Assembly: GCA_012295275.1 (NCBI GenBank)
Contig: CM022670.1
Location: 19,840,001 to 19,904,000, forward strand
DNA length: 64,000 bases
Direction of reading: 5' to 3'
DNA from: Chrysomallon squamiferum
Lineage: Eukaryota; Animalia; Mollusca
Shown here: positions 21,033 to 58,732 of the stretch, one piece after another
Layout: each line of letters begins with the position of its first letter
Numbering within the stretch: the stretch's first letter is position 1
Translations under genes and position numbers: made by a program
The notes under the pieces: generated by a model
Databases searched by the model: none
What the model was told of the DNA's origin: nothing
What the model saw: the letters and a program-made list of their open reading frames with translations, nothing else

Positions 21033-21043
21033 CAAGATGGCGG
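21033..21043 (+). promoter_or_regulatory. YY1-like motif overlapping the KAT8 start codon
   Basis: CAAGATGGCGG matches the YY1 consensus, which often overlaps the ATG of housekeeping genes with short 5'UTRs. Confidence 0.4.
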
Positions 21044-22398
21044 AAAGTGCGAAGAAAGGTGTTTCGGTGGATTGCAATTCGTTAAATTCTCCGCAAACAC
21101 CAAATACTACAAACTTTAAAACTCAGACTTCATCGAGAACTGAAGAAAGAAAAGACAGCAACCGCAGTGATGATACTATTCCCGATATTGGGGATCATTA
21201 CTTTGTTAGAAGACCCGATAATTCGTGGCACCCCGCCGAAATAATCCAGGTCAGGGCTGATGATTCAGGCTGCAAACATGAATTTTATGTACACTACGAG
21301 GGCTTTAACAGAAGACTGGATGAATGGGTTCAGATAGATAGATTTAATCTTACCACGAAAATTGATGACCAGCAGACAAAAGTTAAAGATCTTACTATAA
21401 ATTTAACGGACCTTGCAGATAGAACGGACAGAAAAATAACAAGATTTCAAAAAAGAAAACATGACGAAATTAATCATGTTCAAAAAAGCTATGCAGAGAT
21501 GGACCCAACAACAGCTGCTCTGGAAAAAGAACACGAAGCTATCACAAAAGTCAAATACATTGACAAGATTCAGATTGGAAGATACGAAATTGATGCCTGG
21601 TACTTTTCTCCGTATCCCGAAGAATACGGCAAACAACCAAAGTTATTCATTTGTGAATTCTGTTTGAAATACATGAGGTTGGAGAAAACCTATAGATACC
21701 ATCAAAGTCAGTGCACCTGGAGACACCCACCTGGGAAAGAAATCTACAGAAAGGGAACAGTATCAGTGTTCGAAGTTGATGGAAAAGACGTCAAAATATA
21801 CTGTCAGAATCTTTGTCTGCTTGCAAAACTTTTCCTTGACCACAAGACTTTGTATTTCGATGTTGAGCCATTCTTGTTTTACATTCTTGTTGAGGTTGAC
21901 AGACGTGGTTGTCATCTCGTTGGTTATTTCTCAAAAGAAAAGGAATCACCTGATGGAAACAATGTTGCCTGTATTCTGACACTCCCACCATTCCAGCGAA
22001 AAGGATATGGCAAATTTCTCATTGCATTTAGCTATGAACTTTCAAAACTTGAAGGAGCTGTTGGCTCACCAGAGAAACCTTTATCTGATTTAGGAAAGCT
22101 CAGTTATCGAAGTTACTGGTCATGGGTCCTGCTTGAAATTTTACGAGACTTTCGAGGAACACTGTCCATAAGAGATCTCAGCCGGATGACAAGTATTGGC
22201 CAGAATGATATTATCAGCACTTTACAGTCACTAAACATGGTGAAATACTGGAAAGGTCAGCATGTGATATGTGTGACACCTAAGTTAGTGGAGGAACATC
22301 TCAAGAGTGCACAGTACAAACGTCCTCCACTCACAGTTGATCCCACTTGTCTGCGATGGGATCCTCCAAAGAAGATTCCAAAGCCCAACAAGAAATGA
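21037..22398 (+). CDS. KAT8: Histone acetyltransferase KAT8/MOF (MYST1), single coding exon, 453 aa
   Basis: Chromo-barrel (WHPAEIIQ...[16 protein letters not shown]), C2HC zinc finger (CEFCLKY...HQSQC), MYST domain with FLDHKTLY (autoacetylated Lys), NVACIL, QRKGYG (acetyl-CoA binding) and [11 protein letters not shown] (catalytic Glu). The linker [19 protein letters not shown] is KAT8-typical. Confidence 0.97.
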
Positions 22399-25300: not shown

Positions 25301-27115
25301 TTTTTTTAAACCTACACGTTACACATTAAGATGTGAAAAAGTAAGTATATTTGCATTTTGAATGAAGAATAAGACAACATCTAAGTAGTAAATATTCACT
25401 TAATTTGTACATTTATTTCAGAAAAAGATAAAACAAAACATATTTATCAGCAATAAAGTTTATAATTTTAACTTTGCTGAGCTACAAAAACTGAAAGCCC
25501 TCGACAATAATAATAAAATGTATCACTATAGATCTATTATTGGTAGTAACTGCAATATTTAGTTTCTACAACATTATCACAAAATCAGGAATCTGATTTA
25601 ATCAGTTTTCTTTTTTTTTTTTCTACATTTTTATTTTTATAGTATTTCATTTTTGTTTATTATCTGCCATGCAATTTAAAAAAATAATATTAAAGGATTT
25701 AGTTCTGAAATTAAGATCTTAATAATTTGATTGATTTTGTTTACTACTGTTTCACTGTAATCTCATTGTTCTATCAACAGTATTAAAGTTACAGAAATAT
25801 ATAAATGAAAAATAAAATAAATATAAGATTTGAATGCATGGACTGTTACAAAGATTAATTTAATTTTCAATTTGAAAATAATATGTACTGATAAGAAATG
25901 ACATGAATGTTATGTGATTATCAGCAATCCAAATCAAAATAAAATAAATAATATCCCAATAATCAAAAATACAAAAACCCAGAAGTATCTTTCAGTAACT
26001 ATATTTTTACTCAAAGAACATCCATGCCAATATGAACAAAACAGCTAAATACATTATTTAAAAAATATATCAATTGGACTTGTATATTGGCAGCCTCCCA
26101 ATATCTATAAGCACTTGTATTGATTTACTTTGTTACTAACAAACTCAAATAAAATAATAATGTATTTAAGCTGACTGTTTATCAAAAATACACGTCAAGT
26201 GTAAACAAGAAAAGAAATGTCCTATTCCACAAAGCAGAGAAACATAAAAATTACAAGAACAGAAACATAAACATTTGTAATTTACACTATACAGTTCCCA
26301 AACAACCCCCCACAAAAAAAAAATTTAATCTGTGTTTCAAAGAACAATTATTAATAATGTTGCTTTTAATGAATACATATGCTTTATCTAATAATTTAGT
26401 ATTCATTCTGAATAAATAATAATAATTAAAAAATAAAAAGATTAAATAATTGTGTGTCTGTGCCTTAAAATGGTGATAAAGATGAAGCAAATTGTAAGTT
26501 AAATTTGGAAATTTTGAAAAAATTAAACCAAAGAAATACTGCAACAGTGTCTTCAAACTCAGCACTAGTATAAATATCACAGAGTGCATTCTGATCAAAA
26601 ACTTATCTAAACAGTACTTAAAAAATAATAATAATAAAACAGAGATACTTTACTTTTATTATCTATATTTGCACAAATAAAAACTTAAGTATTTTGGATT
26701 TACAAATGTGGCACAATTAAAAAAACAAGAAATGGTTTATATAAAACATGTATTGTTTTAAAAAAAAAAAAAATAATAATAATAATAATAAAATATTTGT
26801 GAATATTAAAAATATTTATTTACCAGTTATTTCAAATGAAATGTATGTATGTTGTATTGTCAAATTTGGCATATTAAATAAAGAATAATAATTCTAGACT
26901 ATTTTATTGTTCTTCAAATATCACATATCTTAAACATATCCTACACCAATCAGTTGTTATTACACATAAATAACAGTTCAGGATTTGATAAATAAAACCA
27001 TATGAACTAATGACATCCATTGTTGTTGGTTCTTTAAAAAAAAAAGTAAAAAGCCTGAAAGATAGACAGATACTTTTCATCAACAGAGATTCTACAAAGT
27101 AAGTAAAGGAACTGT

Positions 27116-30100
27116 TTAAATTTTCTCCACACGAATCTTGATTGGCAATGGACTGGCTTCAACACGTTCTTGAAGATGGAGAACCTGTATACCTTTACCT
27201 TCAACAGACAGCTGCCGCAAATATTCCAAATCTCCATTGATACTTAGCTTCTGTAAATAAATACAAATAAATAGTCACAGATAAAATTTAAAAAACAAAT
27301 ATTAAACAAAACAAAAAAACATTTTAATAAGATGATTTCAAAATTTTAAGATATTTTGTATAATAATTAAATGATTCAGAACTTATATTTTGTCACACCA
27401 CAGGAAATTTTTACAAATACTTAGGGAGATATTTTGTATCTGTTTTGTCTACAAATGAGGAATCGTAATGCAGGGAAATGATTAGAACTGGAAACAGATT
27501 GGTGGATTCATATTGATCCTGTGACTGTTATAACCCTATGTTGTCTAAGATCTTTTTTCAATAAGGTCACTTTTCAAAAAACATATAAAAGTAATCAATT
27601 TTACCATGTGAACTCTTGCTTTCTTTACAAATAAAAACAACAGCGATAACAAGATAGTTTTTACACCAACCTGACAGTGAATTCTTTGATCCGGAGCAGT
27701 GACAGCTGCTGTTAAGCACAACCAAATCATTGTGATAGCACAGAAGAGTATTAACAGACACAGCAGTAGTCTAGGGACACCGGTCTTTTTAGCAATACAC
27801 GACAACCAGTCTGATCCAGCAGCTATGCCAGATTCTTCTATCACTGAAAAATGAGCTCCATCTTCAAAACTACGAGCAGCTCGCATCTGAGAATTCTTCA
27901 GCATGGGAGTGGCAGCATTGTCGAGTGGTTCAATATTAGTTTCCCAGTAGTTGGAGGTCCTGTCATCTATAACTGGTCCTTTGTAATCTGAAATGGGACT
28001 ACTTTTTTACAATCTTTTGTTGTAAAATTAAGAAACCAGTTTGAAACAAAAGAAAAATATAAATGTTTTAAGAGCATTTCTCATTTTATATGTAAAAAGA
28101 TGTTAAGGTATTAAAAACATAATAATAAAAACTGAAAAACAAAGTGTTTTTTATTTTTGTAGCAAAAAAAAAAGTGAAAATAATATTGCAACTCTTAACT
28201 GTAAATTTGGAATAGAGATTATTTTTTACAATTTTGAAATTTAATTACATTATCAGATATTTTATGACAAATAGTACATAAATTTTACCATCAACATCTT
28301 GTGCATCCATAAATTCAGTGAAAACTTGTGGCTGTGACTTGATAACTACAAGTTTTCCATCACCAGCAGCCATGTAAAAAGACCATCGTACAGACACATG
28401 TTTGTATGCTTTGTCTATCATGTTGCTGTAAAGGTTATGTACATACATCAGTGGATACATGAGATGCATGCTTGGCTCCACATCTTTCATCTGTCAATTA
28501 AAATTATATTCTTATAAAGTTATAGTATACTTCAAAAAACCCCATATTAATACTCATTATACTTACATCTGTTAAATAATTTATTTATATTTTATATATT
28601 TCCAAGCAGTTATTCATTTCTGGTAAATTTTATAGAAAAATTCTTATTACACTGGATAAATGATTAAGACAAATCTTAAAATGACATATATTTTATGCTA
28701 GCATCACGAAACTAGAATTACTTTCTTGAAATAAAATCTTCATGTAATCCGTGTTTTTTCATTATTATAAACAATACTCATTTAGAATTGTAAATAAATG
28801 TGTTTTTTACTTTTATTCTGCATGGTAAAATCTTTCAACAGCATGCAGATTGAAAGGCCTGTTCTAGTGCAATGAAAACCATGTGACAGAGACCAATAAA
28901 CAAATTTTAAAATAAAACATAAATACTTACCGCCTTAGCTCTCTTTTCAGCAAATGGGGCTTCGCTCTTGCACCCCAAGCTGCAAGCACTAACCTCACTT
29001 TCTTTTTTGTAAGCTTCTTTGCAACCTTCAAAAAAAAAAATTAAAAAAAATTAAATAGTCATGGATAGTAGAAGGTGAATCAAAGAGTGCTCAGTATATT
29101 TAAAGATTAACTTTCTTAGCATATTATAAAAATTTAAATTATAATGTGATGTATACGTACATGAAAGGCAGTCCTTTTCTGTTCCATTTAGATCAGCTGT
29201 CTCGTGGATAAATTCCATTATTGAATAAAACCTACAACCTCGGTGGCAAGATTCATAGCTACTGCCCTTTAAAGAAAGCAAAAACAAATTACTGCAGCTG
29301 AAACTGACCCAGTGTATGACTGCATGCATATGTGGATGTTGATGTAAGTGTAAGCATTCGTGTGAAAATGTTTCATTTATTGCCAGAAACAAATTTAAAA
29401 AAAATTAATAATTTGAAAGTACACAAAATGAAATTAGGCCATTGTACATACCACCAAAGGTAAATATTAAAATAATTTATTAATATATCAATTTATGTTC
29501 AAGCAGATATTATTATCCAGTAAAATGGCTGCATACTGTTGTTTTTCTGTTACATGTCAAAATGTAAAATGTAAAAGGCTTGTCATGGGGTATTTTTGTA
29601 TATATATATATATATATTGATTATATGCAGCTGTATATTTCTACTGTTGTATAAACTGAACAACAATCCTATTTAAAATTGCTTTGTGGTTCAGAGAGCA
29701 GGATCAAGGCTGATGGGTCAGAAGATAAATCTACTTATCATGTTAGCCTAGCTATTTCCATCATGGGAATTTCATAATACCTAATTTATCAAAGATCACA
29801 GAATACAGTTTTCTGTTTTTTGAAAGGTGCTATAAAATATCATACTTCTGATGAAAATAAATTAGTTCATTTTCTTGTACTTTTCATGTGGATTTCTTTT
29901 CTTATTTTTATATGTATTATCCTCAACAATACTCTGAATGTCTAAAAAATTTCAAAACACAGGCATGTAAAAATAGTTTATGATTCCATATCTGACATCC
30001 TTTATTTAAAGAAAATAGTATTATCCTTTTTTTTTTTGTTTTTTCTCTGTGGTTGTTGGTTTTGTTGCTTTAAAAAAAAAAAATTATTATAAAGTTTATT

Positions 30101-30705
30101 TTTCAGTACAATAGATGTTTTCAGTTTATTTAAAAATAATAAATTAATAAAGAAAAAGAAATGAATGAAAGAAAGAAGTGATTTTATTATTATTAACCTG
30201 GAAACATTTGTAATAATGCCAATGATTTCATAGCAAAATAGTAAATCTATGTGGGTGGGTCACTGAAACTGCTACTTTCATGTTGTTGTTTTTTTTTTTT
30301 TTTTTTTTTTTGTAAACCTGAATAAATTAAATTTTAAAATAAATGTAGTTTTATTTATATGTGCTTGTCAGTTTATAGCATTAAATTCAGCATGTTATTG
30401 GAATTATTTTAAACATTTCATTCAACGCATTTTAGATATATATATGTGTAATTTATTTGAAAAAAATCAAAATAAAAGTATGAAAGTATTGACAACCTTC
30501 AACCAAATGAACTAAGATTGTCAGAAGGCGGTCCCATTCTTTAACTCACCTGCTCGTACGTGTGTGATGGGAATGTATTTTTGCAAATTTCAACACAAGA
30601 TTTAACATCACCTAAAGCTCTATCAAAAACATCACTTGATGACGACTGAATAATAAAATAAATGAAAACCGAAATAAATAAAATATACGTTACGCTGGCA
30701 GCCAT
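27116..30705 (-). CDS. TMEM59: Transmembrane protein 59 (TMEM59/TMEM59L family), 6 coding exons, ~336 aa
   Basis: Exons (minus strand): 30705-30550, 29266-29161, 29025-28931, 28490-28289, 27987-27671, 27250-27116. All introns are GT-AG and phases are consistent. Protein has a signal peptide, FDRALGDVKSCVEIC, CHRGCRFYSI, ACSLGC, WSFYMAAGDGKLVVIKSQP, WLSCIAKKTG plus a TM helix, and the tail KLSINGDLEYL...EASPLPIKIRVEKI. Confidence 0.93.
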
Positions 30706-30751
30706 AATTGATTTTAGATTACGTATGGCTCTTTCCGGTTTGGTTATTTTG

Positions 30752-31022: not shown

Positions 31023-31927
31023 CCAATTAATAAAAATAATTACAATAAAATATTTCATACCCTGTCACTCATATATATGTACATGTTTATCCTGCGATTT
31101 GTGTGTATGTGTGTGTGCGTGTGTGTGTGTGTGTGTTGTTCAAAGTTACTTATTTAGTGTTTAATGCTGGTTTTGATCTTTAATACAGTTTTGAAAACAG
31201 CTGTCATTTACAAAATAACAAATAAACTGTAATTATTTAAGAACCATTTTTTATTAATGTATAACGACAATGAAACTATTATTATTACTATTATTATTAT
31301 TATTTGAATATTAAATGTGTTATCAACTGATAACATGATACATATACAGCATGTATATTTTAATTTATTTATTTTAAATTATAGCCTTATTAGAAAAAAA
31401 AAAAAAAAAAAAAAAAAAATTAAACGCAAAAGAAAGAAATGTTTTATCCCCTACTTATTGTGACACTGATCAGTGATATTTCTGCAAGAGCTCTTTTTAG
31501 TATTCAGTTATTTATTACCCCTCATACATTAACGTTTGTAATAACTTTTTAAAGAATGTATGACATTATTTACACACTTCTATTTATTTATTTATTTTTG
31601 TTTATATTTTTATTTCTTAAACCGAACTTTCAATCCCCACTATCGTTTTATGTTTAATAATATCAATCACTCAGTAATAATAATAATAATAATAATAACA
31701 ACAATAATAATAATAATAATAATAATAATAATTTAAAATTATTTGCCTATTCATAGTAACATATTAACAGATCGATGTTCTATTATATAAATTTAAAAAC
31801 AACAACAACAACAACAAAAACCTTCATATATATTTACTTTAATAAAATTTGCCTGTATGTGTTTGCATATCTCTCTATAATAGCATAAAAAGAAAAAGGA
31901 AAAATAATTATTTAGTGCACCGGTGCT

Positions 31928-32037
31928 GTAAATGATATTTTGTAGTAGTATTGCTACTAATAATTAATTGCTGCAGCTACAGTAAAATGATATTTTGTAG
32001 TAGTATTGCTACTAATAATTAATTGCTGCAGCTACAG
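31928..32037. repeat. ~55-bp direct tandem duplication
   Basis: GTAAA(A)TGATATTTTGTAGTAGTATTGCTACTAATAATTAATTGCTGCAGCTACA occurs twice, head to tail. Confidence 0.9.
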
Positions 32038-32266
32038 AAACAGCAGCATTTAAATAATAATAAATAAATCAATTACGATGACATGGTCTATAGGTGTAAC
32101 ACATATTTAAGTTAGACGACAGTCTATTAGTTTAGTAATTTTATTATGGAAATAATAATAAAACATAGGCATAAACGTACACCATCAAATCGGATTACGA
32201 AAATAACCGAGAGGTGCCGACAACAAAGTACTTGACGATTCTCTGCGGTACTGTTTTGTTGACAAA

Positions 32267-35200
32267 ATGTCGGATATGGAGAATGTTTCTGCAAACGAAT
32301 ATAGACATGAAGCAAAGTGTAAAATGGAAACCGATTTTCAGAATAATTCATTTGCTCAGTCTATCGAATATCGAATTATGTCTGGATCACAGATAGATGC
32401 AAAACAGTGTTTCACTGACTTAAATGGCCAAAAAGTGAAAGCAGTACCAGTTTTAGTTGATTTTAGAAGATTGCTTCAGCTTGGAAATGCCGACTACAAA
32501 AATGGAATCATTGATGGCGTATGATAGAACATATTTTGATTTAAATTCCCCTATCCCCGTTTACATTGTTTAGGACACATATTTAGGAAACAAAATAAAA
32601 TAAATAACAATCTTTTTTTGATACACTGAAAATCCGTTATGAGCACATACTGATACTGATGATGAATTTGAAAATGTATAAATTTATTAGTGTTTACAAA
32701 AGTTAAATAATTGAAAAATTAATAATAGAGAATGTTTAAGTGACCCATATCTTATTTGTCCTAAATATTATTTTCACTTTTTTCAAATTAGAATCAATAC
32801 ATATTATTAAATTTTATTGTATAATACTGTTATACGTTTTCATAATATTACTAATAACTTATTTTTTCATTGTTAAGTTTTGTATTTTGACAGATATCCA
32901 ACAGAGATCTCCTTCATGCTGTTGTTGGATTGTATGATGTTTCATTATCAGAAATGACACCCGATGTTCTCTATTCAACAATTTGTGAAAAGTGGGCCAG
33001 AACAATTGTTTTAGTACGAGACACTCAAGGTACATAGTGAAAGATTATTTATTCAGTGAAATCCAATTTTACTTAACAGGTTTTTGATAAAACAAAAGTG
33101 TATTCATCAGATGTATTCAATTATTTTTGATTAGATATATTTTAAATGGAAAAAATATAGAAAGAAAATAATAATAATAAAAAATATAAATACTTTATGT
33201 AAGTGTGAACTGGTGTGTGTGCTTATGTAAATATGTGCGCCCAATGTCTGAGATAAATATTTTGGAAATGATTTAACATAAATAAATCTATTGAATTCCT
33301 CATCATCTATTTCTTATTATCCTTACATTTTATTAATCAGAAATACTAGAAAAATTAAAAATAAGAAGAATGTATCTGGAATAGGAGAACAAAATGATTT
33401 AGTGTCAGTTGAGGTACCTTCCACTAACCTAGAGAAAAAGGACCAAACTGTTGCCAATGGAGATAAGGACACTTATGAACCAGAAGAAAGCAAGCCAAGT
33501 ATCTTCACTGGAGTCTTTAGTGACACAGAGGATGATGAAGAAGAAGAAGATGAAAGGTGAATGATGATGAACATGATGATGATAATTTCTTAGCCAGTTA
33601 GAGACATAATTTTATGTTGTGCTGGTTATTCATTCAGACATTCCAGCCCAGTCTCTGTCATTTAAAGATTATATCTGCAAAACTCAAAAACATCTATAAA
33701 TAATTGGTTCTGAAAATTACCATCCCAGTAGTTAATTGGAAATAAGAAAAAATTCTATTTACTAAAAATTAAAATTAAAATTAAATTAATGATTGATTAT
33801 TCATTTATTATTATTTCAATTATTGTTAATGTTGAATAAAAAAATTTTGATGATTTTAATTTTAAAATTGTTAATATTATTTATTTATTTATTTTGAATA
33901 TTTAGTGAAGAAGAAGATTTTTCTATTGGAATTAACAAATTTATAAAGGAAGCTTCAGAAAGGAGTAAAAGGAGGAAAGAAACAATAGAAATTAAAGAAG
34001 AAGATATTGGTGTGGAAAGTAGATTGCTTGCTTGTGCTACATTTGAAAAGAAATATATGTAAGTAAAACTGATTATCTGTGTCAAGGTTAAAATATAAAT
34101 AAGCCTGGAGGTAAAAGAAACCAAAATTATTTGAATGAATATAAATAAATAACAATATAAAAGTAGGAGTATGCGTTCATCTTTCCTTCATTCCAGTTTA
34201 TTTCTGTTTTAATTTTTCATTCTTCTTCCTTATCCCTGTGTATCTCTGGGAAGTATTACAACTAAAAATGTACCATTATTTAATATTAATTTCAGTTAGT
34301 AGAACATTTTTTAAAAAGTCAGAGTTGTCAAAATACAATTTACAGATACATGTTAAAATACTTAATATATTAAAGATAGTATGATAATTCCTTTTTTGAA
34401 ATTCATTTTTCTTTTTAGAAATCATAAAGAACTTGTAATTCATTTGACTTTGATCAGTGTCAGACAAAAGTTCAGGAACTATGGAATTGGCAGATATCTT
34501 CTTTCAGCAAGTAGCATTGATAGATCTATGATAAATCAAGGGATTTGCATGATTCCCTCCTCACAACTATTTAAAAAAATATATATTACATTTAATAAAT
34601 GTAAAATTTAATCCAGTGAAAAAATGTAATGAATCAATATTTTCTTTTTACTTCTATTTATTAAAAAACCCAACAACAACTGATCTAGCTCTTCTTAATG
34701 TTAACTAGAACATTTCTTATTATCTTAAAAATGGAGTAAATAAATAAATAAATAAATAAAAAGTATTCTCATCCATAGTGAAAATGCAGTATCATTAAAA
34801 CAATGTTTTTTTTTCATTGTTGACTAATTTAACTGATGTTTTGTCAGTCCATATATTCATTCAGTTTATTTATTTTCTATAGCTTGTCACATCACAAAGT
34901 ATAATAGGTTCATATGTTGCTGTTGTTGTCCATGCAGATAATTCTGCTGTCAATTTTTTTGCAAAGTATGGATTTTCTGATGATTTTGTCTTAAATAGCA
35001 GATTCAGGTGAGTTAACTTTACCAGTTTTAAGTAGATCCTGATTTATTTTCTTCTTTTTTAATAAAATAAAACAACAAGGAACCACTGATAACAAAAATA
35101 TAAACAAAATATACTGATTAACAAATTAAAAACATGAAGAAATATGACTACACAATTATAATTGAATAAAGTTATGAAAATTATTTTTAAATCGAAATAT

Positions 35201-35580
35201 TTTCATTATGATTTTATTAGAAAAGAGTAAAAAAAAATTATTCTTCTTCTCTCTGTCTTATATCCATAAAAAATAAAAATATTTCAATGTCTTAAAAAAT
35301 CTGGAAAAATAATATTTTTTGTTTCTGTCTGAAATAGATTTTTAAAATTATGTTTGTATTCATTTCAGTGAACTTGCAGAGCAGTTCACAAACTGTACTC
35401 TGATGTGTTATCTACCAGGATTTTCAGGTAAAATCAAATATTGCACCTGTTCAGGTAAAAATTGGTACAATAAACTAAGAGGATCTAATGGTTTTTTCTG
35501 TTGTTACATCGAACAGATTAAAATTTCATGATCTCTGTTTCAGCTACATTTTTATTTCTTTATTTACTAGTATTTATTTA

Positions 35581-35644
<64 letters not shown>

Positions 35645-38600
35645 TATGATTATATTTTTAAGTTTCAAAATGTTGTATAAATACTTTTTATGTTGTTTCA
35701 GGTAGTAAACTGCTGAAAACTTCTTATGTACCAGGAATCGAATTCTTTGAACTTGAAATGGAATTTAATAAATGGTGATTTTTTTGGGTACTATTAAACA
35801 GTTTTATTTATTTTATATATTGCATTTTCTTTCTCTTTTTTTTCATTCTTTCTTTCTTACTTTTTTCTTTTAGTTTTGAGATTTATTTTATTGGTGTTTT
35901 TAAATATATATATTTTTTTCATTACATTTTAAATTTATTGTATTGTATTGTATTGTATTCTTTATATGTTAAGATCATACTTTTTTATTTTAATCCTAGT
36001 ATCACAGTACACTGAATTTGTTATTGCATTATTGTAGCCTGCTGGTATTGCCTGTTGATAGACAAGAGTTACCATGCACTTTTTTCTCTCTTTTTTTTAT
36101 ATTTGTCTTGATTGTGATTTTTGTTGTATATTGTTTTGTTTATTATGTTTTTTTTATTTTTTTTTTACAGGAAAAACAAAACTCTGGAGTCATATCAAGC
36201 TCAGGTTGGTCTGGTTATGAGAATGAAACATGAAATTTTGCAGCTCAAATCTATTGTAAGTAATTTAATGATTTACTGCAAATTGAACACTGTGTATTAT
36301 TTATGCCCATATAGTTTTAAAAAAATAAAAGAAAGAAAAAAAATCTCCTAAACATTAGAGATACAATTATTATAGCTTTTATATTAAGTACAGAAACACA
36401 ATTATTCCACATCACCCCTTTTTTGAAGATAATTTTTGTCCAAGTTCAAAAGTTAGCATCATTTTACACTAAATATTGTTATTGATAAGTTTTTGTTTTA
36501 GGTAACAACTCAGTCAGATCTTTTATCAAAAATTGCAAGGGAAAATAATAAACTGAAAATGGAAAAACTGGCCATTGGTATGTTTATTTTTAGTGAGATT
36601 CATTATTTAATATTAATTTATGAAACCCATTCTTTTTTCTTCTTTTCTTTTTATAATATCTAGTTTACTTTAAAGATCATTGAAATGAATATTATAAATG
36701 TTTCAAAACATTTAAATTGTCACATTTGATGGATTTATATTTTTATTATTTTTCAAAAATATATTTTGTATCTGAACATTATAATTATTATGATGTTAAC
36801 TTATATCTTTGTCAGAATAAAGGTATATTTATTTATTTTATTTTATTTTATTTTTTTTTTTTTCTCTATATTTAATATTCATTTTTCTAATGTAGAAAAG
36901 GAGTTTTTCACGTACAAACTGTCAACATCCGACTCTCAGTCAGCTGCTCTGAACAGACAACTACTTGAATTAAGTGACCATGGTCAGTCTTAACAATTTT
37001 AACTATAGACCACAGGATCAGTCCTCCTCAGTTACTTGATCTGGTCAATTACCATTCTTGCCATTATTCTTCTTTTTAACATTTGTCGGATACTCTAAGT
37101 GAGTTTTCTGATAACTGTAATTTAAAGTTGTAAACCATGGCCAGTGAAGTATAGTTTCCTATCTATAGGAATGTTTATATAAAAGATCTTATGCTGCTAA
37201 CTGAAAAGTGTTGTGTAAGAACCTTCACAAGAGTTGTATCATCATTAGATAAAAACCACATTACTAAATTCTTAGTATGATTACAGTATACCAAATGTTT
37301 AATTATCATTAAATTTCCACATCTAAATAATCTGTGTCCTTAAAATGACCTTTTCTTATTAAATATAATTCTGTAATGTTGTTATGGTTTAAAAATGGTA
37401 ATAGTTGAAATGACTGTTATAAAAATAGTTATAATAAATATTTAGTGTTTATTAATGACACTAACGTTGTTCTGGTACTGTAACATTCATAACTGCTTTA
37501 CTTTATCATGATGATTATTAGGACTATTTTTGTTGCCTTATTTTTATCATCAAGCAACAGGAAAACTTTTTGTTAGTCAGTTTGACTGGTTATTCTTATG
37601 AACTGATATAAATATTGGTTTTTATCATTTTCAGATGAGGATGACAATGATGATATTTGTACTGAGGAGTTGATTGAAGATCTTCAGAGACAGGTTGACA
37701 TGTTGCAGGCAGGTTTACAGGGAAAATATCTGCATGCTGTTAGCAGCAATGGTAGCAACACACACAAAGTTACTTCCATAGGTCAGTTACTATTTATTTA
37801 AAATATCAGTAAAATAAAATAAAGAGCATTAAGTATTTATATAAAATAAGCAAGAAAAGATATTTACATCTTGTATCTTTTAGCGTATCAGAATATGTGG
37901 TCAATGATATCAGAAATATTTTCAATATTTCAGGTGCTTCGAATTACGTATCATTTCCAAGTGCATGTGTTCGAAGTCAGCAAGAACCATATGATCTCAC
38001 ACAAGATGCAACTGACTTTTATAACATCACTGAGAAATTTATAGAGTCAATGAAAGAAGATCTGAATGTTAAAATATCTTACGAAGTGACCTCTGTAGTG
38101 AAGGTATGACTATAATGATACTACATCATAAATAAATTCCAATTTAGTATTATTTGATATAATTTATGATACTTTGAAATTGATTTTACACTGTTAACTC
38201 AGATATTATGATATGATAAATACAGCCTTGATCATTAGCAAATAAAAGTTAAGAAATATATATATAATTATAATCTTGACATTGTTTTAATAAGCTTCAT
38301 GTCTGGTAAAAAAAAAAAAAAAATGTTTAATAGCCAGATATAAATAAGATGTCAGTATTGATAAAAGTTTATTTTATTAAAAAATAATGTTTTTATAAGG
38401 AACAAATTAAGGATTCTGAAACATTTAGTAGATAAAATGCATAACAATTAACTTTTGTTAATAGTAGTAATAATATTTTGTCCTCTACATCTTTCAGGCA
38501 ACATTAACAGAAGCTGTGAAAGAAAATTTCAGCAAAAGTATAGAAAAACTTCACAATTCTGACTTGGTGACAGAACTATACTATTGTGGTTCTTTGGAGA

Positions 38601-40004
38601 AGCCACACAGAATACCAGAGATTCTGAAGTTTGGCTTTTCTGAAGAAGGTAAACTTGAAAACTTGCACTAGAACCACAGAACAAAACACATTGTGCTTTT
38701 TGCTGGATATTATTATTATCATTAATCTTCTTCTTATTATAGTTGTTTGAACTGTTTTTATTATAACTACTTATATTATTATATAATTTAGAATTTAAAA
38801 AAAAAAGTATTTTTGTTGACTAAATTCCAATGATGGGTACAGGTGAAACCAATAGGTTTTTTTTGTTCATTCTGTATAACCAGGAAAAAGCTGTGCTTTC
38901 TTTACTTTCTGTTTATAGCTGATTCTATTACTAACATCTTCATCTATTTACAATGATGGCATTTTCCACAGCAATGTAAACAGTGCTGGCATGTTTGCAA
39001 TTCAGTTCTGATAACAATTTAAAAATGTTAAAAAAAAAGAAATAAAAAAGAAAAACAAAAAATAATTTTATATAAAATAAATATTGCCACAAAGAAAATT
39101 AAAGTAATAGAATTAGTGTTTATTTATTTCCTTTTGTTTGTAGATTTCTCTTATGGGGAATATGGAAGAGGTCTTTACTTCTCAAAATACCCTTCCACTG
39201 CTGCACAGTTTTCTGCAGTAAGTACACCATCTATAAATTAATTTATATTCATTTGTTTAACGAGTTTAATACTTTTATACAAACTATTTGTTTATTTTTA
39301 CATTTATTTAACATTTTGTTTAACAGAATGTAGTAATTTTTTATCAGTAGAAAATAAAATGCCTCAAGTTTACTCATTTCTAGTTGATGTTGTTTTTGTT
39401 TTTATAGGTTATCATGATACCAAAACTCTAAACTCAAAAAAGCTTTGTGTTAATGCATTTAACTGTCACTCAGTGAGATTGCTACGAATAATTAAAATGC
39501 TGTGAGATCTTCTTAAACAAATATTCATAAATTTAATTTACAGCTTGGGAAATTGCTGGTTGTTGAGGTGGGTCTTGGTTCTGTAGAAACCTGTACAAAA
39601 TTTGAACGCACAAAGAAACAACCAAATGATGGTTTTGACAGCATTATAGTAAGCGTTTTTTAAATTTAATCTTTGTTTTGTATTATTTCAGTTCCTTAAA
39701 GAGATGAGCATTGTATTTATCTTGAATTTTTAATGCCATTTTACATTACAAAAAAAAAAGAGAATTAATATTAGGATCTTTTTATTTGTTAGTTAATTAG
39801 TTTTATTTCTTTCACTTTTACATGAACCAAGTAAAGGAATGAACTAGATTAAGTTCTAAGTCGATGGCAAAATTATATTAATAAAAGACACAGATAAAAT
39901 CAATTACAACTTAAAACTTAAATTTTTAATATTACTTGTGCTTTTTGGTTTGTTGGTTAGTTGGTTGAGTTGTTTTTATTTATTTATTTATTTATTTATT
40001 TATA

Positions 40005-40040
<36 letters not shown>

Positions 40041-40309
40041 TATTTATGTAAGTATGTATGTATTTTTATATTTATTTATTTATGTATTTATGTATTTATG
40101 TATTTATGTATTTATTTATGTATTTATTTATTATTTCAGTTTAAGTTTTTTGAAGAAGAATTACTTCACTTGTTTGTGTTTTTTAGACTCCTGGCCGGCT
40201 GAGTAAGAATGTCACCACAGATGATATTTCTCTTCACCAAGAGTACATCATTTTTGACTACATGCAAGTTAAACCAATCTGCCTTATCTGTTACCAGCCT
40301 ACAACTTGA
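32267..40309 (+). CDS. Uncharacterised GNAT (GCN5-like) acetyltransferase + coiled coil + PARP-like catalytic domain fusion protein, 17 coding exons, ~700 aa
   Basis: Exons: 32267-32518, 32894-33029, 33341(or 33385)-33556, 33906-34058, 34419-34506, 34883-35007, 35369-35427, 35702-35774, 36171-36255, 36502-36577, 36896-36982, 37635-37781, 37934-38103, 38498-38648, 39144-39217, 39544-39648, 40187-40309. Phases join into one frame, except that exon 3 needs the downstream acceptor or one extra A, and intron 5 is GC-AG. GNAT motifs: ISVRQKFRNYGIGRYLL, VHADNSAVNFFAKYGFS, NCTLMCY. PARP motifs: LYYCGS...ILKFGF, YGRGLYFSKYPSTAAQF, LLVVEVGLG, GFDSII, QEYIIFDYMQVKPICLICY. Confidence 0.85.
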
Positions 40310-42863: not shown

Positions 42864-44937
42864 TATTATTATCTTACGTGAGATATACTGACTAGAAAAC
42901 CAAGATCATTTTACTTCTTACTATTAATTATACAAATCTTAAATTTAACATTCAGTGGAAATTTTAAATATGTACTTTGAAAGGATGTTTTTTTAAAGAT
43001 AATAATGATGTAAACAAAACCTGTACTATACAGTTAATCAATATGTAATAGCAGGATAGAAACTGATTAGTGTTTAGGATACTAATAATAAATATAACTT
43101 AGAAAATAAATTAATAGCTACAGTCTATGTTGTTGATGTTTTTGTTGTTGTTGTTGTTGTTTATATACATATATATATTTTTTTCTTTCTTGGTTTTGGG
43201 GGGTGTTTTTTTAAAGAATTTATTTTTTTATTGCTTGCAAACATTACAAACACATGCATATAAGCATTTACATATGCACACTTACAGACGTGTACATTCA
43301 TTTTTTCAATATATTTTTTAAACTTTGTTTCTTTGACTTTTAGAAAGTACTTTTGGATACTCCAGTTCTAATAGATATCCAACATGGATCTGTCAGATAC
43401 AGATACACAGAGTATGATGGAGAGCCACGGGACAAAACAAAAAGAATAGAGAAACCTTACGAAGGGAGACAAGCATGTAACAAGAAAAATTACTTCTACC
43501 ATCCAAGACTTAACTCTTATGGATCAGGTGGGTGAATTTTTAAACATTATTTTAAATATGAATTAAAATCTATATTTGTTAGGGGTATTTATTTATATTT
43601 TTATTATCTGGTTATTTATTGCATTTCTGTTAAATCAATTTTTTAAATTATTTATTTTATTTCCACTGGCATGTACTGTTGCTATTATTTTATTATCAAC
43701 ATATTTTATGATAATATGTTTCATTAATTTAATTCAGTACTTATTTTTTATTATTTAACCTACAAAAGCTGGAAGATATGAATATTTAACCACAGTTTTT
43801 ATCAACAATAAGTGATGAAAAGTGTAATGATATGGTGTCATTGTTTCTGTTTGTTTAAATACTTTCATATGTCTTTGTTTTGCCTGTTTCAGAAACTGAT
43901 TCAAAAATCCAGAGTGATTACAAGGTAATGCATGTAATAAAAGGACCTGACAGAGCAAAACAGAAGAAATTGTTCTATGTGTATGGGTATGGCTGGGATG
44001 CCAAAGATGGTTTGAGAGTAAAGCCAACACTCACAAAAGAAGAAGGAACAGATTTTTCCTGGCCACAACTTCGAATTCCTAATGACCTGTATTACAATTT
44101 GCATTTTCAAGGTAACATAAATATTAAACATTTGGCAGCAATAAAAAAAATAACTTTAAATTTTTTTTTTTTAAATAAAAACATTGTGAAAACATTTTTA
44201 TTATTCATTTTTAAATACACAAAAAATCATAGAATGATTCATAAAAATATGACCACTACAAAAGACTATGTCAGAATATTTTTCGTATTAACTAAAAAAT
44301 TATGAGTGTAAATATAAGTTGTATAGTAGATAATTTCAATGTAGAGTATTAATATTCAATTTAAGCAACCATATCTCAGTATTACACTGGCAGAATTATG
44401 TTAAGGATGTGGTATATGTATTACCCCATAAATTCTCAAAAATAAGACTCCTGCCTCAGTTACATATGTGGTTTCAGAGTATTATGATAAAGAGGAACCT
44501 TTACTGAAATATCACATTATCAGAAGCTTAAAAAAAAAGCTTTTCTTTTACTCTTTTATACAGTTGTCTTATGTTGACCAATCCTGTCTTAAATTAATTG
44601 CTGAAACATTCCTGTATTTACATTTAACACTGTCAGATAACAATTTTGTTTCTCATATTTTTAATTACTACTTTTATCTACTTTCAAAAATTATTATGTT
44701 TTATTGTGTGATATACTGTTTTATTTGACTTTGAAGATGATGAAAAAAATGAAGAGCTGCTTCAAGAAGAAAAGACATTTTCATCCAGTCAAGATAAAAT
44801 AAGGTAAAGCCTTATTTGTTGAAAACAAATCTAAAATATGAATTTTAAACCAAAATTTCACTGCAATTGGAAAAGGGGGTATCAGGTACAAAAAGGCTGT
44901 GAATATTTGTTTTAAATATTTAAGAAAATAGATACTG

Positions 44938-53820: not shown

Positions 53821-56640
53821 ACCTTTGTTTTTTTTTTTTCCACTTTAACATTTATCTGTTTCTCGTAATTTTGTTGCTGTTTCTCTCTACTTCAATATAT
53901 ATATGTGATGAATTTAAAATAGAGCACAAGCAAACAAACACACACGCACACACACACATACACACATGCACACACATAACATATATTGTTACATACACAC
54001 ATAATTTTCGTATAATCTTTTCTGCTTTGGACACTGTTTCTATTATATTTGTTTAAAAAATTTTCAGTATATTTTACAGTACAGAATTATAAATGCAATC
54101 ATTTTCTTTGACTAATATAGAGCGAAATAATAAAAATGAGAGAGACAAAATGAAAATGAGAGAAAGAAAGTATAAAACAGACTGAATAATAAGAAAAATA
54201 TGTTAAGTGAGAGTAGGTCAAAGAACAAGAGCTTTAGTTATTTATAATCAGAAACTGTATTATCAGAAAATGTGCTACTTGCGAGCTCTACCAAGACTTT
54301 TGTTTCTGGATATTATTTTTAGCTCACCAGTTAAACATGAAAATTTGGTAATATTGTAATAACACTATTCAGTGCTTAGTAAAGTTCGTGACCATTGCTT
54401 TCGGACTTCTAATTGGTGTCAAATTTCAAACAAGGAAGCCCCGTCGTTCAGACAGAATCATCAGAGAGGTAGAATCAACAAGATGTGTTGATTACTTTAA
54501 CAGCCTAACGGTATCTAAATTTGAAAAGTATGGTCGTCTAATCAAGTTACGAAATTTTGTTTTTCGTTTGCAGATAAGTAACGCGATAGAACATGCGCAG
54601 TGAACCATGTTATCACCTACTGAATATTTTACTTACACGTTTGGAAATTATAGCTGCATAATCAAGTTTGAGCTGCATATATTATTTAATCAACAGATGT
54701 TAAATATCAGCCTGTGGCATTGCGTCTAGAATGTTCGGGATCTTCAAGCAGTACCGAGACCATAGGAATTTATATTTTATTAATAGCCTATTAATATACG
54801 TTACTGTCTGAAAATATAAATACTGAATCGCAGCTCACTCGATGCCATGACAGCGTTCAAGATTGACATATTCTGTGAACCTTTATAATTCATCTTCCCT
54901 TCAGTCTCGAACGATTTTATTTTCCTTAAAAAAAAAAAATAAAGTCAGTCCAAACTTTTTTTTCAGTAAGATCATCGTTGACAATCAGCTTACGGGGATT
55001 TAATAGAATTTCGACTTGTTAGACAGTACTATTTATTTCAATCACCACTGTAAAACGCGTGACATTTTAAATTGTCAGATGCACTTATCCTTCTCAACAG
55101 TCAAAACCATTTTCGTGTCAGTTTTAAAGGGTTTTAAAAACAGCTATTAAGTGTCACTTCAAATATTAAATTTTTTGTAAACTGGAATCAGTCGTGTTTT
55201 CGATTTTGTTTTTAAAACCGACGGACATGGTTTCTTAAGGTCGTAATACAACATTACAATATGTTGTTGTTGTTTATATTAACGTTTTATAGAATTTAGA
55301 TTGAATAAAACTGTGAGTTTTGACTTTTAAAAAGTCAGTGTGATCAAAAGTTTCATTAATTTTTATATGGTTTGATAGTTATATACTTTCGCTATTCATC
55401 TGAAAAGAAGTTGCAGTAAAACTTGATAATTTATTTTCAATTTACATACAACTACATGAACAAGCAGACCAAACATTTTGTTATAATACCAGAAAAAGAC
55501 GTAATATTTTTGGGGGGGGGGGGGGGGGGGGGGAGGGGTCTTCGTCAGCTAAGATTATTTTATGGGGAAAAAATATATCGTACAGAGAAATCCTATACAA
55601 ATTCTATACCAAGAAAATTTAGTCTTAGGTTTATATTTGACTTAGAGAAACGGGGATCGATCCAAAGACCATTCAGCAACCAAAATATTCGCTTTCAGCT
55701 ACATTAAGACTACATCCTAATATCTTCAAGTGATGAATAACACAAAGTGACACCATAAGATTGTACTGAAATTGAGACATGAACCAACTAATTGACTAAC
55801 CAACCGTTAAAGCTTTAACATCTTAACATCAAGTCGGTATTAGCTACAACTGCAGTGTAAAAACAATTAGCGAGATAATGGTATAGTTTGTAACCGTGGA
55901 TGAACACAACAGAAACGTTAGTCTAACACAGGGGAAATGAATAATCAGAACGAATAATGAGAAACATCTAGCAATTTCAGAGGATTAGTGCTTTTACCAA
56001 TGATGGTCATCAAGAAGAAAAATTTGTAAACGATACACTCTCTTTGTTGTATTTGCTTCTCAGGAGGACTCATATGCATTTGCCCTCGGACCAAACTGAC
56101 TGGGATAATATGAACTCTCACTCGTGTTAACATGGTGAACTGTCAAGTTCTATCCGTTACTTCGTACGAGTGAAGTTGCCTTTTAAGATAATATTTAAGA
56201 CATCTTGTGCAGCATTCATTATTTTTTTGTATTATTTTATCTCACTTGTTGTTATCTGAAGCGTAAAGTTTGGTAAGTTACCAGTTACAAACATGCTAAG
56301 CGGCCAAACATTCTCAATCATCGACTGATATCGATTTCCACTCTCCCAACAGCGGCGCGGCATTCTTTAGTTTTCATTCGTTGTGAAGTTTCTACAGTGT
56401 CGAGAGTTCGTTAACCGTTACCATTATACCTACAGCGAAAGCCAAGACTTTGATTTTATTTCAGAATTATCACCAAATACAGTTTTATCTGCGATAATTT
56501 TAAATTTATAAAATAGAATAATCTATCAGAAAAATTACTATTAAGATATAAATTGAACCAAAACAAGCAAAGATGTATGCTTATTACACTTAAGTGTTGA
56601 TTGTTATAATACAAAGCCAAAATAAGAAACATCAGTTACG

Positions 56641-57066
56641 ATGTCGATGGCACCTGAGGGTGTCAGTGGCACCGACTTTTACATGGAATGGATAAATTCA
56701 ACAGTTACTACGACATCACCAGAGCTACTTAACAATTCTACAGTTAGTAATAATTTAACACAAACGTCTCCTACTCAGAATAAAATTACAACTTACTCTA
56801 CGGTGACCGAAAGTTTTATGTCATATGATGCCAACAGTACGGATTACTATTATAACTACGATGAATCTGTCAGCTCACTCCCGTTAGACGAGCTTTTGCC
56901 AAATGCCATGGTCTACGGCACGACGTTCTTGCTGGGACTCATCGGCAACATCCTCGTCATCGTCTCCGTCGCTCGGTTCAAGAGGATGCAGAATGTCACC
57001 AACATTTTCTTGCTCAGTCTGGCCACAGCTGATCTTCTTCTTGTGCTTATTTGTGTCCCTGTCAAG
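56641..57066 (+). CDS. First coding exon of a rhodopsin-class peptide GPCR (invertebrate orphan GPRnna14-like / QRFP-like receptor group); partial
   Basis: Ser/Thr-rich N-terminus with several N-x-S/T sites, TM1 VYGTTFLLGLIGNILVI, ICL1 RFKRMQNVTN, and TM2 FLLSLATADLLLVLICVPVK. It ends at the donor AAG|GTAAGA (phase 0). No TM3-7 exon was recognised before 64000. Confidence 0.9.
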
Positions 57067-58732
57067 GTAAGATTTTTGCTGTTGTTTGTTTATGTGTATA
57101 ATGTGACCGAAAGGACCTGAAGAATTTTATTTACTCACATTACTTGTTAAAGGTTGTGTGTACGCTCCTCTCCATGACATTACAATTTTTTTTTCTTTCC
57201 TCAAGGATATAATTTTCTATGCCAATGGTTGGATGCTATAAAGAACAACTTTTTTGCAGAGCTGAAATTTTCCATTTTTACAGTGGTTTAAACTGTCATA
57301 CTTATCTTGTTAGACCCTGATTTGAGGAAGTCACTGTAAATCAAGATGTCCGAATCAGTTGTCCATTGAATGTCAGTGTACTCACTTTCCTATATGTTGC
57401 GAATTGTTCCATTTGTTTGTTTGTTCAGTTTGAGATTAAATTATGACTGCAATGAAATTTTCTGGTTAGAGACAAACAGAGAGACAGACACAGAGACAGA
57501 GAGAGAAAGATACAGGGAGTGAGACACAGAGAGAGATAGAGATTGAATCAAATTATCCAATTATAAACATTTAATTCAGTGTATGCGACGAAATCCAGAA
57601 AATATTATAATCAAAAATAAATTTTTTCAACGACTAAGCACCATAATTTAAACAAACAAAGGAACGTCAAATTAAATTTATGATATAATTAGCAGACCCC
57701 CAAACATAATGAGTTTAAAATAAGAAACCTATTCCTGCCTTTTAACGGATTACTATCGTTAAGTAGAAGTAAAAATGTTCTACATTTACCATCCTTTTGT
57801 TAGAAAAACTAATATCAGGCCTTTGATGCCTCAGATGTGTTGAACTGGTTGGAATGGGAAACATCTCAAAGCACATACCAAGAAAAATAAATCGTTAAAC
57901 TCGTTCAACGTTCTGTCCTGAGGTTGATATCTTTCCTCATTATAATTATATTCAAAGATGAACTCGGAATGATATGGGGAAAAGATAAATAGCTTAAATT
58001 ACACAGGATTCATAAAAAATATTGTTGTTAAAGAAACAGCTATTTTTTTACCAAATTAGCTGCCTTGGATGAACTGCGGTCTATATCATTATTAGCAGCA
58101 TAAAATTATGCAAAATACTCTTTGCTAGAGAAAATCAGATAGATCGTGAAATTTCTTATGAAAGGAGTAGTCCGGTAGAAAGAAAAGACAGACAGAAAAC
58201 GGATGAATGAATGGATATACGAAAGGATGTATAAATAAATAAATAAATAAAAATAAGTAAAAAAAAATCCAAATAATCTAAGAAAATATACGGGGAACAT
58301 AAAAACAGAAGACAAAATGAAGCATTAAAAGCGACTAATAAAAAGCAAGAAACAAGCAAATAATTAGACTATTATCACAATCCTTTTAACTTTAAAGAAG
58401 GATGAAATCAGAGCCACACCACAAAGAGTTCTAATCATTAGTATCTATTATTCGTCTACTTTAGATGTAAGTCAAAGCAAATGAAAACCTAATTTATTTG
58501 ATGAAGATAATATAGTGTTACTGTTAACACGTGCTTTTTGTCTTTTGTAACGTGATATATACTGGAAAAAAATAAATCGATGATGAGATATCTGATAAAG
58601 AATTTTGTGTGTGTATGTTTATGTGTGTGTGTGTGTGTATATATATATATGTGTGTGTGTGTAATTTGAATATCGGATTTACGAATAATACTATTATAAT
58701 AATATATACAAACCATACATACATACATACTT

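Follow-up and report, generated by a model that had tools for sequence, protein, structure and literature searches.

A GNAT–PARP fusion gene in Chrysomallon squamiferum from an old, apparently undescribed family

Introduction

GNAT acetyltransferases carry a P-loop with the consensus Q/R-x-x-G-x-G/A, and the general base of Tetrahymena GCN5 is a glutamate (both according to the accessible portion of PMC4964394). For the PARPs, whose active members are marked by an H-Y-E triad, evolutionary surveys distinguish six clades (Citarelli et al. 2010, PMC2964712, accessible sections) and a few pseudo-ADP-ribosyltransferase (pseudo-ART) families; moss PARP3 retains the Tyr and thereby offers a plant precedent for a C-Y-E triad (PMC2964712, same sections), and LRRC9-ART, which shows testis-leaning expression, has neither Tyr nor Glu (PMC7955679, in the sections available). 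An acetyltransferase fusion is not mentioned in the accessible main text of four PARP/ART surveys (PMC4245714, PMC2964712, PMC7955679, PMC10450202). Described here is a gene at positions 32267–40309 (+) of a 64,000-nucleotide stretch of the mollusc Chrysomallon squamiferum (assembly GCA_012295275.1, contig CM022670.1, positions 19,840,001 to 19,904,000; "the window"), in which a GNAT domain is followed by a coiled coil and a PARP fold. The locus holds a genuine, transcribed fusion gene whose family, old and apparently undescribed, is built from two known folds; in both of them the signature catalytic residue has been exchanged.

Gene structure and transcripts

The gene consists of 17 small exons in AT-rich animal DNA, with AG at all 16 acceptors, GT at 15 donors and GC at the donor after exon 5. 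The assembled coding sequence amounts to 2120 nt and yields an open frame of 706 amino acids across the 17 exons once one unspecified base is placed at the start of exon 3. All exons were matched in order (tblastn) by protein P0001 of the gastropod Gigantopelta aegis ("uncharacterized LOC121375513"), which is 74.6% identical to the window protein over 674 aligned residues; domain searches were run mainly on this ortholog. Neither a stop nor a frame break lies between the GNAT exons and the PARP exons, and the fusion is almost certainly one real gene.

The original prediction, made from the same DNA, had proposed 17 exons in one frame of about 700 residues with no stop between the halves. Its exon positions and the open frame were borne out, the one correction being the base missing from exon 3 in the assembly. 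The GNAT domain had been assigned to exons 2–7; the fold is present there, but it starts slightly earlier, in exon 1 (about residues 40–60). The remaining module order, a coiled-coil/acidic linker and then a PARP fold in exons 13–17, was confirmed, and profile searches on P0001 recovered both folds (Pfam PARP, E 2.4e-12; Acetyltransf_10, E 2.1e-7).

Four RNA runs of one study match the window, and three of them, together with one DNA-like run (X5), were compared over positions 31900–33800. The joints 32518>32894 (exon 1 to exon 2) and 33029>33341 (exon 2 to exon 3) were present in the contigs of all three RNA runs, and in each of these runs loose contig ends continued from exon 3 into exon 4. 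At the exon 3 acceptor (33341) the RNA has 12 letters, in frame, where the window has 11 (33341–33351). Owing to this one letter, the frame as assembled stops at codon 144 (TAG, 33382–33384, +), a stop that is absent from the RNA frame; the missing base is read as an assembly deletion. Fourteen downstream AG sites within exon 3 would also restore the frame and were rejected because the RNA uses 33341. The X1 contig (2588 nt) carries exons 1–3 in its first 576 nt, so that the remaining 2012 nt leave room for exons 4–17 (1516 nt), a size consistent with a single transcript of all 17 exons, though not proof of one. Exonic differences between RNA and window, probably allelic, were seen at 32413 (C>T, X1), 33413 (G>A, X2) and 33426 (A>G, X2 and X3).

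Family membership and distribution

The exon 6 query led to two full-length proteins with both the GNAT and the PARP Pfam domains, the better of which was P0001. P0001 as query gave 86 proteins, with matches in molluscs, Lingula, nemerteans, annelids, a bryozoan, echinoderms, hemichordates, amphioxus, a tunicate, cnidarians, Trichoplax, Callorhinchus, sturgeon and amphibians. Searching with a profile built from 49 of these matches (A1) retrieved 126 representatives at E<=1e-30. Of the 30 clusters checked for names many had none; those named include Latimeria, Pleurobrachia, Sycon, Macrostomum, trematodes, Limulus and Amia. Protist members were found in the filasterean Pigoraptor, the glaucophyte Cyanophora and the haptophyte Diacronema, each with GNAT and PARP Pfam matches in one chain. 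With profiles cut from A1, both parts were detected in one chain in 105 of 230 proteins, a set that includes the window protein, the 49 builders, which match by construction, and many fragments. The GNAT–coiled coil–PARP order, for which a check in other eukaryotes had been suggested, recurs in molluscs, cnidarians, Trichoplax, a ctenophore, echinoderms, amphioxus, a chimaera, a coelacanth, amphibians and the three protists. Four proteins with both parts (P0012, P0016, P0056 and P0077) come from Logan contigs of 2.1–2.9 kb, too short for introns.

The annotation si:dkeyp-50b9.1 is carried by Callorhinchus P0072 (E 1.3e-98 against P0001, over 94% of the latter) and by Latimeria P0218, in which all four modules are present. 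From its full-length similarity across GNAT, coiled coil and PARP part, the window gene is assigned to the si:dkeyp-50b9.1 orthogroup. This gene name was found in one expression paper (10.1101/650218) in the literature search. The original prediction had suggested that the architecture might be undescribed. Full-text literature searches, with most subscription journals outside their scope, gave no description of it, but RefSeq/UniRef already list such proteins, labelled "uncharacterized" and with the two Pfam domains assigned.

In Styela, Limulus, Sycon, three trematodes, Amia, Acipenser and Antedon, the database proteins comprise GNAT and coiled coil but no PARP part. A FastTree phylogeny of the GNAT and coiled-coil parts of 43 chosen proteins, rooted arbitrarily on Cyanophora, grouped the window protein with Gigantopelta (support 1.0) and roughly tracked organism relationships with weak deep support; the tail-less proteins were scattered in it, which suggests that the PARP tail was lost repeatedly. 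In the ESM Atlas, two eukaryote-only clusters contain both domains, and a 180-member, mostly chordate cluster with the lower score of 0.78 is GNAT-only. Among metagenome contigs, 62 loci were found, mostly intron-split animal fragments, and five of them (L001, L002, L003, L007 and L037) were examined. No prokaryotic relative appeared in 95 pattern matches of genome contigs and no viral relative in 70 pattern matches of viral contigs, the reach of both searches being limited by the pattern; exon 1 alone as query gave no homolog among 27 candidates. Among the named P0001 matches and the names obtained for the 30 clusters there was no mammal, bird, insect, nematode, fungus or land plant; the usual model mammals seem to lack the family. 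Two unnamed proteins, P0177 (677 aa) and P0168 (427 aa), carry the family PARP domain, in which His takes the place of the Tyr, but no GNAT by the profiles; this tail may have moved onto another protein.

The PARP part

Profile and fold agree in placing the C-terminal part with the PARP/ARTD catalytic domain (PF00644). The P0001 match scores 47.2 bits against a cut-off of 26.7, Foldseek returned PARP domains in all listed rows (E 9e-10), and the model superposes on tankyrase-2 with Z 19.2 and a root-mean-square deviation (rmsd) of 2.6 over 169 aligned residues (VIA). The closest solved relatives by profile are the tankyrases and PARP4. The fold begins in exon 13 (37934..38103, aa 500–556). By alignment to tankyrase the triad reads Cys586-Tyr618-Glu685: Cys586 (38585–38587), in place of the triad His, lies with Gly587 in exon 14 (38498..38648, aa 557–607), and Tyr618 (39176–39178) lies with Ala626 and the stacking Phe629 in exon 15 (39144..39217, aa 607–631). 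Exon 16 (39544..39648, aa 632–666) supplies PARP strands, and Glu685 (40241–40243) is encoded in exon 17 (40187..40309, aa 667–706 and stop).

Residue counts were taken from non-redundant proteins, 133 for the GNAT and 86 for the PARP part. Glu685 is kept in 76/78 and Tyr618 in 74/85; the Glu column ranks 6th of 182 in conservation and is retained from Cyanophora and Diacronema to animals. The pocket Gly (Gly587, 70/82) and the stacking aromatic (Phe/Tyr629, 73/84) are likewise present. Across the 125 proteins with a PARP part, the triad-His position holds Cys (95), Ala (8), Gly (7), Ser (5), Phe (2), Val (1) or a gap (7), and 81 of them carry C-Y-E in place of the H-Y-E of active PARPs. Hardly anything is left of the loop that follows the stacking residue (tankyrase-1 has 21 residues there, PARP4 6 extra); a short loop at this point goes with mono-transferases. 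WGR, regulatory, ANK, SAM, BRCT and VIT domains were not found at E<=0.1 in P0001 or P0002. The window protein has Lys655 (exon 16) where 73 of 81 relatives have Arg.

The GNAT part and the coiled coil

On P0001, Acetyltransf_1 also passed its Pfam cut-off; single window exons reached only E 0.02–0.09 against Pfam. By sequence profile the closest solved relative is Tetrahymena GCN5 (E 6.2e-10), which takes the top four PDB matches. The GNAT model (59–348) superposes on yeast GCN5 with Z 14.0 and rmsd 3.1 over 161 aligned residues (VIA), and GCN5 entries lead the GNAT rows of VIA, NatD standing at 13.1. The window protein combines this fold with a P-loop of the GNAT consensus (R-x-x-G-x-G, 34474–34491).

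Exon 1 (32267..32518, aa 1–84) opens with the ATG and encodes a disordered N-tail and the first GNAT strands. Exon 2 (32894..33029, aa 85–130) would supply the GCN5-like N-terminal helices and a strand, as judged from a weak N-half alignment to Tetrahymena GCN5 23–58 and from the superposed model. In exon 3 (33341..33556, aa 130–202) the domain is interrupted by an acidic insertion (aa 134–205: 72 residues, 32% Asp/Glu), which ends in exon 4 (33906..34058, aa 202–253; entered by the RNA loose ends and matched by tblastn), where the GNAT resumes. Motif A, with the P-loop, lies in exon 5 (34419..34506, aa 253–282), motif B with Asp301 and Asp316 in exon 6 (34883..35007, aa 283–324), and the last strand, resembling the C-terminal strand of GCN5, in exon 7 (35369..35427, aa 324–344). 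Intron 5 (34507–34882) has the donor GCAAGT, which is required for the frame.

P-loop, motif B, Arg268, Asp301 (119/131) and Asp316 (123/129) are strongly conserved; Gly277 is found in 130/130 and Arg/Gln272 in 126/129, and R272, G275 and G277 are all present in the window protein. His261 (34441–34443, exon 5) aligns with the general-base Glu of Tetrahymena GCN5. The 128 residues counted in this column include His (48), Gln (42), Asp (11), Tyr (8) and Glu (4); the Pigoraptor, Cyanophora and Diacronema proteins have Gln.

AlphaFold2, run with the A1 alignment on P0001, gave a mean predicted local distance difference test score (pLDDT) of 77.5 and a predicted template modelling score (pTM) of 0.49, with the GNAT at about 40–345, an 85-residue helix at 356–440, a short helix at 460–482 and the PARP fold at 521–706. 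In the window, the long helix begins in exon 8 (35702..35774, aa 344–368), continues as a predicted coiled coil through exons 9 (36171..36255, aa 368–396) and 10 (36502..36577, aa 397–422) and ends in exon 11 (36896..36982, aa 422–451), where the linker follows; exon 12 (37635..37781, aa 451–500) encodes an acidic patch and the short helix. The coiled-coil signal is modest, the best a/d register being 56% hydrophobic. A homodimer prediction for P0001 38–445, run without an alignment, scored 0.03 against a mark of 0.32 and speaks neither for nor against a dimer.

Proposed function and alternatives

The reading that we favour, tentatively and at somewhat less than an even chance, is that of an atypical acyltransferase with an accessory NAD+-binding module that would be at most mono-ADP-ribosylating and not a polymerase. 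It is suggested by sequence and model comparisons, because the core of GCN5-type GNAT and long predicted coiled coil is constant and the cofactor-binding residues are kept. This core would likely be an acyl-coenzyme A (acyl-CoA)-dependent lysine acyltransferase: the GNAT would bind CoA through its intact P-loop and, having no GCN5-type Glu, use another residue as base (candidates Asp301 and Asp316) or none, while the acidic insertion and the coiled coil might anchor the protein to a partner that is basic or filamentous. Lacking the His but keeping Gly, Tyr, Phe and Glu, the PARP pocket could bind NAD+ and tune or complement the acetyltransferase, transferring or hydrolysing at most a single ADP-ribose. 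The absence of the PARP half from the database proteins of several lineages argues for such an accessory module and against an obligate bifunctional enzyme. The original proposal, a possible bifunctional enzyme or sensor oligomerised through the coiled coil, is supported in part: gene and domain order hold, but two active halves are not borne out, the PARP fold lacking the triad His in every aligned member and the GNAT lacking the GCN5-type Glu.

Several observations weigh against this favoured reading. His occurs at the triad position in none of the 118 aligned sequences (7 gapped), and Ala626 (82/85) replaces the pocket Ser of the tankyrase K-S-N-Q-Y motif. Active diphtheria-type ARTs also have Ala there. 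An unconserved general-base position would fit a dead enzyme equally well; many GNATs act without a fixed general base. Incomplete gene models could account for some of the PARP-less proteins. In Arabidopsis, PARP3 (C-V-E) shows neither activity nor NAD+ binding (accessible part of PMC6701155). For a role in male germ cells or flagellated cells there is no more than a lead: all named host taxa of the family have flagellated cells, and zebrafish si:dkeyp-50b9.1 is listed, together with meiotic and flagellar genes (sycp3, hormad1, dmc1, tekt1, dnah6 and spag16), among genes upregulated in male-like juvenile gonads and, relative to ovary, in testis (10.1101/650218, as far as accessible). This expression may concern a PARP-less protein, because none of the ray-finned fish members seen has a PARP part. 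The gene name was not found in the searched supplement files (small or partial) of Foxj1/cilia papers, which gave the ciliary idea no support.

Two other accounts of the protein were weighed. It would be fairly unlikely, in our estimate, that the protein is a writer with two activities, its GNAT acetylating and its C-Y-E domain mono-ADP-ribosylating the same or a neighbouring target and so linking acetyl-CoA and NAD+ levels. The deep conservation of the catalytic Glu, which LRRC9 has lost, speaks for this; moreover, AtPARP1 mutated to C-V-E still bound NAD+ (PMC6701155, same part), so that Cys alone need not abolish binding, and the family also keeps the Tyr. The same source, however, reports plant PARP3 as inactive despite its Glu, whose conservation is therefore no proof of activity, and both the lack of the triad His in all aligned sequences and the tail-less proteins of several lineages count against two working halves. 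Unlikely, too, is a double pseudoenzyme, in which both folds would be non-catalytic scaffolds or cofactor readers and the coiled coil an anchor to a flagellum or germ-cell complex. Each fold has lost a signature residue, and AtPARP3, LRRC9 and the pseudo-PARP domains of TASOR and RCD1 are precedents; yet CoA P-loop, motif B and two acidic residues hardly vary, the PARP fold retains its Glu, Tyr and Gly, and many GNATs without a fixed general base are known to work. A broader reading, which we regard as doubtful, would make the family a PARP-like lineage predating the animal–algal split that combines Glu-less lysine acylation with His-less [C/A/G/S]-Y-E mono-ADP-ribosylation in one chain and links acetyl-CoA with NAD+ in male germ cells or flagellated cells; its apparent absence from the usual model mammals would explain why such a lineage was overlooked.

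Two further alternatives concern the gene itself. Given the exon 3 frameshift, the window copy might be a broken allele or pseudogene: its frame as assembled is cut short, no X5 DNA piece over the exon 3 site is among the matches listed, and Val294 (exon 6) stands where 122 of 133 relatives have Asp or Glu. The extra base is nevertheless in frame in all three RNA runs (three samples of one study) and the remaining frame is intact and close to that of Gigantopelta, so that we consider a broken copy very improbable. That separate neighbouring GNAT and PARP genes were joined only by annotation appears extremely improbable. The RNA junctions read in Chrysomallon cover exons 1–4, the longest stop-free frame of metagenome contig L002 holds coiled coil and PARP only, and GNAT-only and PARP-only proteins occur; against this, canonical splice sites hold a single frame through exons 7–13, and both parts share one chain in many relatives, some from transcript-sized contigs, and in the three protists by Pfam.

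Because the catalytic Glu is kept while the His is always dropped, the family amounts to a natural test of the need for the triad His in NAD+ chemistry; it also tests the function of a GCN5-type domain without its base, and the natural tail-less proteins serve as a built-in control. If both halves were active, acetylation and ADP-ribosylation would be directly linked in one protein; if not, a conserved pseudoenzyme pair would still need a function.

Neighbouring features

A single long MYST acetyltransferase open reading frame, apparently intronless, lies 10 kb upstream of the fusion gene at 21040–22398 (+), with Tudor-knot, zf-MYST and MOZ_SAS (E 4e-87) matches; we take it to be KAT8/MOF-like. 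A TMEM59/BSMAP-like gene (about 27100–30706, −; PF12280, E 2.7e-5) has a likely ATG near 30706, about 1.6 kb from the fusion gene and divergent from it, and the two genes may share a promoter. Two tandem copies of a sequence of ~55 bp were noticed by eye just upstream of the fusion gene (about 31930–32040). Downstream, an open frame at 43859–44305 (+) contains a protein-like stretch but matched nothing in Pfam, and the first exon of a rhodopsin-family G-protein-coupled receptor lies at 56626–57120 (+; 7tm_1, E 2.8e-10).

Comparison with known systems

The closest system is the si:dkeyp-50b9.1 orthogroup with LOC121375513, which shares full-length similarity, domain order and C-Y-E triad with the window protein; no material difference was found, apart from the lack of the PARP tail in some members. 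GCN5/PCAF (KAT2A/KAT2B) give the best profile and fold match to the GNAT, and P-loop, motif B and C-terminal strand align. Where GCN5 has its general-base Glu (TtGCN5 E122, ScGCN5 E173; also E570/E575), however, the present family has mostly His or Gln; unlike in GCN5/PCAF, an acidic insertion of 70–150 residues splits the domain, and coiled coil and PARP fold follow. The Pfam search showed no bromodomain (P0001, P0002) and no PCAF N-terminal domain, the C-terminus being the PARP fold.

Tankyrase 1/2, PARP4 and PARP3 resemble the PARP part (E 2.7e-10 to 7e-8, Z 16.9–19.2) and share its Gly, Tyr, stacking aromatic and Glu, whereas the family has Cys, Ala, Gly or Ser for the His, Ala for the pocket Ser, a near-absent loop and no ANK, SAM, WGR or regulatory domain. 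Land-plant PARP3 (clade 1D, Citarelli et al. 2010; C-V-E) likewise has Cys for His, a C-G-S motif and the Glu, but it combines the fold with BRCT, WGR and regulatory domains and lacks a GNAT, and the present family keeps the Tyr; the exchange is likely convergent. LRRC9-ART and the TASOR pseudo-ART are comparable as degenerate ART folds inside otherwise non-PARP proteins, and the pseudo-PARP domains of TASOR and RCD1 match the PARP model at Z 13.1 and 17.2. In contrast to LRRC9, without Tyr and Glu, the GNAT–PARP family keeps both and, passing the PF00644 cut-off, stands far closer to the PARPs.

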